A DNA stretch of 64,000 nucleotides from Escherichia coli (GTDB lineage Bacteria; Pseudomonadota; Gammaproteobacteria; Enterobacterales; Enterobacteriaceae): the NCBI RefSeq assembly GCF_003790525.1, contig NZ_CP033635.1. One strand, 5' to 3'. The notes under the pieces were generated by a model. The model was not told the origin of the DNA and ran no database searches. It worked only from the letters and a program-made list of their open reading frames with translations. Numbering within the stretch: the stretch's first letter is position 1; each line of letters begins with the position of its first letter. This document shows, piece by piece, positions 16,480 through 17,600 of this stretch. The translations under genes were made by a program, and so were the position numbers.

Positions 16480-17600
16480 GATATTCCTCCTGCGTTATAA
16501 TGTTCAGTGATTCATGCGGGTGTTCAACTTATATTCTAACAACCAAGTTTCCGTGATTTCCCGTACGTCATTCAGCATTATGAACAGATAAAAATCGAGT
16601 ATTTCTGTACGGTATGTCAGGTTAAAATGTTCAATGAAAGCATTCAGCGTCGGTTTACTTGTTTGGATAAACTCCAGTTTTACTACGTGTTTCTCTGCTC
16701 ATTCAGCCAGTGCCAGAAAGAGAAATTCCGGGTAGTTATCTACGCGAAGTATGATCGGATAGCTACAGTTTGCTGCGATACTGTCGGGTACACTTACCAC
16801 TCGTGGAACTGGCAGACGCCGATCGATTTCAATCGATAACGTCTCACGGTTTTAAAGCTATCAACGATATTGAACGTGCGAAAACGGCGAACACAGACCA
16901 GAGCATCATGCATAAAATCGACAGATCATCGTAGGTTCAGCGTTTCCGGTATGTTAGTGGCGAGGGATTACGCACCGGCAACCGCTGTTTGCCCTCACGG
17001 CGAAAATTCAGCTTCAGCAGACAGTAAATTCGGTGGATCCATTTGTGATTCCACTAATACCCCTGCAGCCGTAAAATCTGGAAAAGTTTCGGAAAATCGT
17101 ATCGAGGATAACGCTCTGCCACCGCCGGCAAGGCGACAATAATGAGTTCGTTACGCGTGGTATCTGGAGGATAAAGATAAACCGTTCTGCTCAGGTTCAG
17201 ACTCCGGCAGGCCTGACTGATACTGAGTCCGATCGTCGTTATCAGGTGAGTGACCTGCTCACGCTTAAAGACTGGTTTTAAAGCTTTTTTCGATAACGTC
17301 TTTCAGTGCCCGGCTCTCCAGCCTCACTCCGGCAAACATCTGTTTGAGACGGTGGTTCCCGTCTTTAAGCTCCTTGATCTTTTTAATATCAGAAGCCTCC
17401 ATGCTGCCGTACTTGGACATTCAGTTGTAGTGGGTGGCTTCAGAAGTACCAGCCTCCCGGCAGATATCTTTTAACAGTTCGTCCGGATTCAACCGTTTTA
17501 ATGGCGGCCATGAGCTGACACTCAGTAAAACGGGCTTTACGCATAACGATTACCTTCATCGGTAGATTGGGTATGCCGGAGGATCTCTAAATATGAATGA
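16480..17600 (-). mobile_element. degenerate IS3-family insertion sequence (orfA/orfB with frameshifts and stops)
   Basis: Minus-strand translation gives OrfA-like MRKARFTECQLMAAIKTVESGRTVKDICREAGTSEATHYN*MSKYGSMEASDIKKIKELKDGNHRLKQ and OrfB-like segments (WNHKWIHRIYCLLKLNFRR; LNDVREITETWLLEY...HESLN) interrupted by stops; ends approximate. Confidence 0.6.

Follow-up and report, generated by a model that had tools for sequence, protein, structure and literature searches.

Positions 16420-17623 (minus strand) of the 64,000-nucleotide stretch of Escherichia coli DNA analysed here, referred to as the window, hold a complete but wrecked insertion sequence (IS) of the IS3 family, its 1204 bp being delimited by alignments with intact relatives. 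The history that we favour, at a probability of roughly 85%, is a single insertion into a harmless spacer of a capsule locus, followed by inactivation, neutral decay and passive inheritance with that locus.

The window is a segment of the E. coli chromosome, and all stretches compared were 100% identical to strain CUVET17-1418. Annotation of this identical genome places a group 2 kps locus between the gsp/yghD genes and the tRNA-Phe gene (pheV), with kpsFEDUCS and kpsMT flanking the serotype-specific genes. In the serotype-specific block the GC content is about 0.30, as against 0.45-0.55 in region 1. The features of the locus that bear on the relic are:

4323-5099, plus strand: kpsM, followed by a galactosyltransferase-like gene and a 3.7-kb gene of the CDP-glycerol glycerophosphotransferase family
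10117-10797, plus strand: kpsT, followed by genes for an acyltransferase, a GT2 protein, a phosphatase and a 525-aa protein
14639-16216, plus strand: last serotype-specific gene, encoding a nucleotidyltransferase/kinase-like hypothetical protein of 525 aa
16217-16419, no strand assigned: left flank, a locus-specific AT-rich spacer of 203 bp (GC 0.20) after the last region-2 gene
16378-16419, plus strand: strong hairpin adjoining the IS end (dG -19.5 kcal/mol, z = -5.4, a stability reached by 0 of 200 shuffles)
17624-17855, no strand assigned: right flank, 232 bp of locus-specific AT-rich DNA (GC 0.26-0.28), made up of a 166-bp spacer and the last 22 kpsS codons (17790-17855)
17790-19022, minus strand: intact kpsS (410 aa), followed by kpsC, kpsU, kpsD, kpsE and kpsF

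Because both flanks are AT-rich and locus-specific, the relic (GC 0.45) forms an island inside the variable block. The hairpin at 16378-16419, identical in a second haplotype, is probably the intrinsic terminator of the region-2 operon. It has an AT loop, ends precisely at the IS boundary and was missed by a simple terminator scan; the end of the IS now provides part of its U-tail (TTT in the spacer, TGT in the element). Further upstream in the left spacer, a T-run at about 16338-16347 shows an apparent one-base length difference between the CUVET and ST69-type haplotypes, seen as a register shift in an ungapped comparison. Within the locus, two biosynthetic genes lie between kpsM and kpsT. 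Identity to the corresponding protein of another K locus is 99% for KpsM and just 74% for KpsT, and as this divergent kpsT lies within the AT-rich block, the variable block includes its own kpsT. An IS110-family transposase fragment lies at about 26545-26727, between kpsF and pheV (tRNA-Phe at about 26926-27001), on the opposite edge of the capsule island.

Database comparison identified the element readily. A megablast search with 16400-17700 matched 710 E. coli records, with 'IS3 family transposase' as the annotation of the matches listed and E=0 to hundreds of IS3 copies; 39 matches were at least 99% identical over the full length and flanks, and hundreds were 80-90% identical over the IS part alone. 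The relic is colinear from end to end with intact copies of 1206-1207 bp that are annotated with a programmed frameshift. After frame repair, its translation shares 76% identity with an intact 370-aa OrfAB and scores 161 bits on the NCBIfam model NF033516 'IS3 family transposase' (cut-off 160; 291.5 bits for an intact relative). The Pfam domains HTH_Tnp_1 (2e-16) and rve_3 (2e-15) both exceed their cut-offs, and rve (28.2 bits, cut-off 32.6) and HTH_21 (22.5 bits) both fall below theirs. In the 100%-identical genome CUVET17-1418, PGAP annotates the relic as 'IS3 family transposase; frameshifted; internal stop'. It is an ordinary IS that is already present in public genome annotation, with the following parts:

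16420-17623, minus strand: full-length degenerate IS3-family element, placed in the IS407 group (GC 0.45; 84-86% identity in alignments with intact 1207-bp copies; PGAP pseudogene in the identical genome)
17600-17623, minus strand: left terminal inverted repeat (IRL), terminal TG mutated to TT; TTTAAGTATCCTGCATAATTGTGT against the consensus TGTAAGTATCCCGCATAATCGTGC
16420-16443, minus strand: right terminal inverted repeat (IRR), ending in ATTTACA in the transposase orientation, with a 1-nt deletion
17285-17544, minus strand: OrfA remnant (HTH_Tnp_1), with its ATG at 17544-17542, a +1 insertion at 17472 and a stop at W41 (17421-17423), ending at the A-run of the frameshift site
16435-17290, minus strand: OrfB remnant (rve / rve_3 DDE domain), with 4 private indels and 3 in-register stops

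A sequence-only reading of this region had proposed a degenerate IS3-family element with recognisable OrfA and OrfB segments and several stops and frameshifts, and had named a lack of IS3-family similarity in databases as grounds for abandoning the proposal. The similarity is present in hundreds of copies, and the family (megablast E=0, 161 bits on NF033516, end-to-end alignments), both segments (HTH_Tnp_1 and rve_3 above cut-offs) and the lesions (5 frameshifting indels, 4 in-register stops) are all as proposed. The proposed limits of 16480-17600 do fall on an element, whose ends lie a further 60 bp or so out on the left and 23 bp out on the right. The search for terminal inverted repeats that the same reading called for located both, at 17600-17623 and 16420-16443. 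In alignment with intact copies, the IRL at the 17623 end reads TTTAAGTATCC in the relic and TGTAAGTATCC in the consensus. The terminal TG...CA of the intact copies (TGTAAG...TTTACA) is retained except for one mutated terminal base (TTTAAG...TTTACA in the relic). Outside the IRR, 12 bases (16408-16419) resemble the flank of an unrelated plasmid copy, L011, at 9 of 12 positions (AAAGCACTGCAG against AAAGTACTGACG), and some BLAST matches overran the IS end because of this likeness, which is probably due to chance.

The coding part carries five frameshifting indels relative to an intact copy, all private to the relic: +1 at 17472, -1 after 16954, +2 at 16852-16853, -1 after 16527 and -2 after 16464. 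Four in-register stops, at codons 41, 164, 207 and 282, were counted against the same kind of copy. Private substitutions, defined as differences from columns in which three other copies agree, were found at 129 of 1197 sites (10.8%), compared with 16-45 in the other copies. They are evenly spread along the element, and in the coding part they are distributed uniformly over codon positions 1, 2 and 3 (32/38/46, p=0.28), whereas the differences between a pair of intact copies fall mainly on the third position (10/9/39, p=3e-7); the two distributions differ (p=0.0025). GC-to-AT changes outnumber AT-to-GC changes by 78 to 28. The evenness over codon positions and the GC-to-AT bias indicate long neutral decay of the relic. 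Since its private decay of about 11% compares with a difference of about 0.5% in the surrounding locus among 39 carrier genomes, the element would, as a rough inference, have died long before the locus reached its present spread.

Placement within the family was approached through the relatives. Five intact ones (1206-1207 bp) are bounded by perfect 4-bp target duplications (GTAC, GTTT, ATAG, CATC and ATAT); among the nine other copies examined, duplications were perfect in five and absent in four. A duplication of 4 bp is the length reported for the IS407 group within the IS3 family (PMC10045372; PMC2722093), and the intact relatives combine it with a length of about 1.2 kb, which points to this group. 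The nearest relatives with a PGAP name are ISAs22 and ISXac2, at about 47% amino acid identity, and ISXac2 is listed under the IS407 group (PMC2722093). Closer relatives (>90% amino acid identity) occur in Salmonella, Citrobacter, Klebsiella, Morganella and E. coli. They are labelled just 'IS3 family transposase', and neither a protein search of 5.8 billion sequences nor a tblastn search of plasmids returned a more specific IS name for them. The relic is closest to this same enterobacterial clade and is best classified, from sequence comparison, as an IS407-group element of a clade common in Enterobacterales. Like IS407-group elements such as ISXac2, ISXca2 and IS1389, the clade is about 1.2 kb long, encodes OrfA (HTH) and OrfB (DDE, rve) with an A-run as the putative frameshift site, and has TG...CA inverted repeats, with 4-bp duplications in intact relatives. 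The relic differs from them in being dead, with 5 frameshifts, 4 stops, TG changed to TT and no duplication.

In relatives that carry A7G, the A AAA AAG motif is in phase and yields a 370-aa fusion protein. The corresponding run in the relic is A6 (17285-17290) and out of phase, and two other copies likewise have A6: L002, annotated with a programmed frameshift, and L004, a pseudogene. The remaining copies have A7, and only A7, not A6, gives the phase required for -1 frameshifting on A AAA AAG. The A6 run may reflect a homopolymer sequencing error, defective copies or a reliance on transcriptional slippage.

The relic, the left flank with the last region-2 gene, and the right flank were each found in 39 of 5426 complete E. 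coli genomes, in every case at 99% identity or more, and all three occur together in exactly these 39. A base-by-base comparison of three ST69-type carriers with the window haplotype showed 7-9 SNPs in the relic and no indels, so that all the lesions checked are shared. No empty site was found among the 5426 complete genomes, where both flanks occur only in the 39 carriers, and a pattern of left flank, gap and right flank gave 0 matches in public metagenomes. The left-flank hairpin was present in two metagenome contigs, both colinear with the window including the relic. The nearest related K locus, that of MMC-J-0105, ends in the same three genes, the last region-2 proteins of this locus and the window being 57% identical. 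It was considered as a pre-insertion comparator and rejected, as the 625-bp spacer that precedes kpsS there contains neither an IS nor any sequence homologous to the relic flanks. ST69 strains are among the carriers. In CC69 the dominant K type is K52 (PMC13171598), for which a rearranged kpsM/kpsT has been described (PMC13171606); because the carriers include ST69 and show such a rearrangement, the locus type is probably K52 (KL52). The relic is fixed in one K-locus type.

The sequence-only reading had set the element exactly at the junction between the variable block and conserved region 1, and had suggested a comparison with other kps loci at that point. With a query spanning the IS end and kpsS, which matched 1745 genomes, similarity to other kps loci was found to end not at the IS but inside kpsS, at 17855/17856, 232 bp from the IS end; locus-specific AT-rich DNA lies on both sides of the relic. 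The matches listed from other K loci start at query base 296-308, mostly at 296/297 (corresponding to 17855/17856), and homology to MMC-J-0105 breaks at the same base. Because this breakpoint is common to the other K-locus matches listed, the boundary between conserved and variable DNA is placed by these comparisons inside kpsS, 22 codons before its stop. The last 22 kpsS codons (17790-17856) are accordingly locus-specific, the start of similarity at 17855/6 being common to almost all other K-locus matches listed. This suggests a shared recombination boundary inside kpsS, and fits an exchange of K loci by homologous recombination within kpsS and not at the IS. No second copy of the same IS that would bracket the variable block, as in a composite transposon, was found in the 64-kb window, and PGAP annotation of the capsule locus lists no other IS besides the IS110 fragment near pheV.

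A small RNA family was also matched within the element:

17137-17279, plus strand: decayed copy of the isrN sRNA family (RF01396), 123.7 bits against a gathering score of 44, over the full model length, antisense to the orfA/orfB overlap
Matches in comparison copies: L003 2221-2363; L007 1022-1164; L010 1030-1172; L002 2214-2356; L018 (strain 746) 14709-14850

The family was matched in all copies of the clade examined, with 150-159 bits in four intact or nearly intact copies and 128.8 bits in the relic of strain 746 described below. This distribution implies that the Rfam family corresponds to an antisense segment of the IS, and isrN appears to be an IS-borne segment of this clade and not a stand-alone island gene. 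Rfam describes RF01396 as an 'Hfq binding' Salmonella island sRNA. In Salmonella, IsrN is a 143-nt sRNA that overlaps the transposase gene STM2765; it is expressed, and raises the mRNA level of the overlapped transposase gene (PMC2330248). The segment in the relic is homologous to the 143-nt IsrN of Salmonella Typhimurium and likewise antisense to an IS transposase gene; it differs in being degraded (124 against about 156 bits), with a broken terminator stem.

A target duplication is a feature of fresh insertions and can be lost by decay or recombination. The search for one proposed in the sequence-only reading gave a negative result at the relic: the flanks, in the transposase orientation, are ATTA upstream and AAAG downstream, and match at 1 of 4 bases. 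By a hand estimate that assumes about 11% decay per copy, so few matches would arise from decay alone about 3% of the time (rough p ~0.03). A simple insertion followed by decay is for this reason not a perfect fit and is slightly strained.

The missing duplication is the only hint of a rearrangement, in which the relic would be a hybrid left behind when two IS copies recombined or when the IS mediated an adjacent deletion or inversion. Either event would have linked the region-2 genes with the segment next to kpsS and left a footprint of locus remodelling. Such an origin would accord with the perfect duplications in 5 of 9 other copies and with a variable block that is itself rearranged, kpsM and the divergent kpsT (74% amino acid identity) being split by two biosynthetic genes; K52 is among the rearranged loci reported (PMC13171606), and IS elements have been tied to the diversification of K4- and K5-type loci (PMC13171598). 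A second relic of the same clade also lies, independently, at the outer end of region 2 in a kps locus of atypical order. However, duplications are lacking in 4 of the 9 other copies too, so that their absence is common. Both flanks of the relic are locus-specific, AT-rich and always together, and the conserved/variable break, common to the other K-locus matches listed, is 232 bp away. The other border of the block has no second copy or IS fragment, and the private substitutions are even, without a step in divergence that would mark a hybrid junction. The decay predates the current spread of the locus, which makes any such event ancient. On balance we regard this origin as unlikely. The proposal that installation or remodelling of the serotype-specific genes left the element behind as a footprint has little support: the missing 4-bp duplication and published remnants at locus borders speak for it, and position, completeness, single copy number and age against it. 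A footprint is possible, but is unsupported by position, completeness or age.

The second relic, likewise a dead member of the clade, was found where region 2 ends distally in E. coli strain 746 (NZ_CP023353; 12 complete genomes). The order of this atypical locus is kpsF-S, kpsMT and then region 2 outward, and the dead IS (within L018 13781-15197) adjoins a 258-bp acyltransferase fragment. It shares with the window relic its clade, its inactivation and its position at the distal end of region 2, but the two differ in their indels, in their flanks and in their orientation, which is opposite with respect to region 2. Orthology was considered and rejected, as no indels are shared and the 11 shared derived substitutions (with 121 and 76 private ones) are near the chance expectation. 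The differing indels and orientation and the few shared substitutions argue that the strain 746 relic is an independent insertion. Atypical loci have been reported to be without IS (PMC13171598); this copy was possibly missed there because it lies outside the locus boundaries used.

A bolder pair of readings is quite improbable in our estimation. Either the missing duplication is real, and the relic, as a fusion of two IS copies, marks an ancient IS-mediated join by which a K52-type variable block was put together from separate sources (the divergent kpsT, the biosynthetic genes and the private kpsS tail), or its isrN-like antisense RNA is still expressed and has been co-opted in highly invasive ExPEC lineages.

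Retention of the relic for a function is very improbable. It would require that an isrN-like RNA is still made as an Hfq-binding sRNA, or that the 1.2-kb insert acts to buffer or terminate the convergent transcripts of region 2 and kpsS. The full-length isrN match is well above the Rfam gathering score, the Salmonella IsrN is expressed and raises transposase mRNA (PMC2330248), and the relic is fixed in all carriers. Against this, three pairs of the relic isrN are broken, two of them in the terminator stem, with a fall in score from about 156 to 124 bits. Selective retention of the segment was rejected because it has decayed at the same rate as the rest of the relic (9.6% and 12.8%, p=0.33). 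On the kpsS side, scans for terminators, promoters and unusual RNA folding gave nothing above background: no terminator-like site was found in the stretch scanned, promoter-like sites were no commoner than in shuffles, and RNA folding near kpsS was unremarkable (z = +1.4). Fixation is explained by linkage, no empty allele being in circulation. A spurious similarity, or a fragment of another mobile element in place of a stand-alone IS, merits practically no credence: no supporting point was found, and the reading is ruled out by the IS3-family HMM matches and by colinearity over the whole length with 1207-bp elements whose ends are marked by inverted repeats and 4-bp duplications.

Under the favoured history of a single insertion followed by decay, an IS407-group element would have transposed into the non-coding spacer across which the 3' ends of the region-2 operon and kpsS face each other, landing directly after the terminator-like hairpin of region 2 (16378-16419). 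Because the site disrupts no gene, the insertion would have been tolerated. The transposase would then have been inactivated and the whole element would have decayed neutrally, accumulating frameshifts, stops, substitutions at about 11% of sites and the mutated terminal TG. Thereafter the relic would have been inherited passively as a fixed part of a K-locus type, probably K52, and would have moved between E. coli lineages with the locus. We infer this order of events and the harmlessness of the site; the relic has no present transposition activity and presumably no function.

Comparable remnants are known from other capsule loci. KL5 carries a fixed IS3 remnant, and in K4-like loci IS elements sit between kpsS and kfoC (PMC13171598). 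IS3 ranks among the two most frequent IS families of K loci, and IS remnants recur at the region-2 borders of these loci (PMC13171598). The KL5 and K4-like remnants resemble the relic as non-functional, fixed passengers near a region-2 border of a kps locus (PMC13171598). The relic differs in belonging to another locus type (probably K52), in being an independent insertion, in overlapping no capsule gene and in carrying no cargo. The recurrence of such remnants at region-2 borders is established, but it does not follow that the relic built the locus.

The relic and live IS copies have identical runs of 33-40 bp in common, and through these it could still provide a weak stretch of homology for recombination, a mechanism proposed for an IS3 remnant in a K5 variant (PMC13171598). 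The accepted view of capsule-locus exchange is left unchanged by the relic. Its neutral decay of about 11%, set against a diversity of about 0.5% among carriers, suggests that the locus was already a unit long before it spread to its present extent. The relic, fixed and inert, marks a single K-locus type, probably that of the clinically important ExPEC capsule K52, and could help in typing or in tracing the history of the locus.
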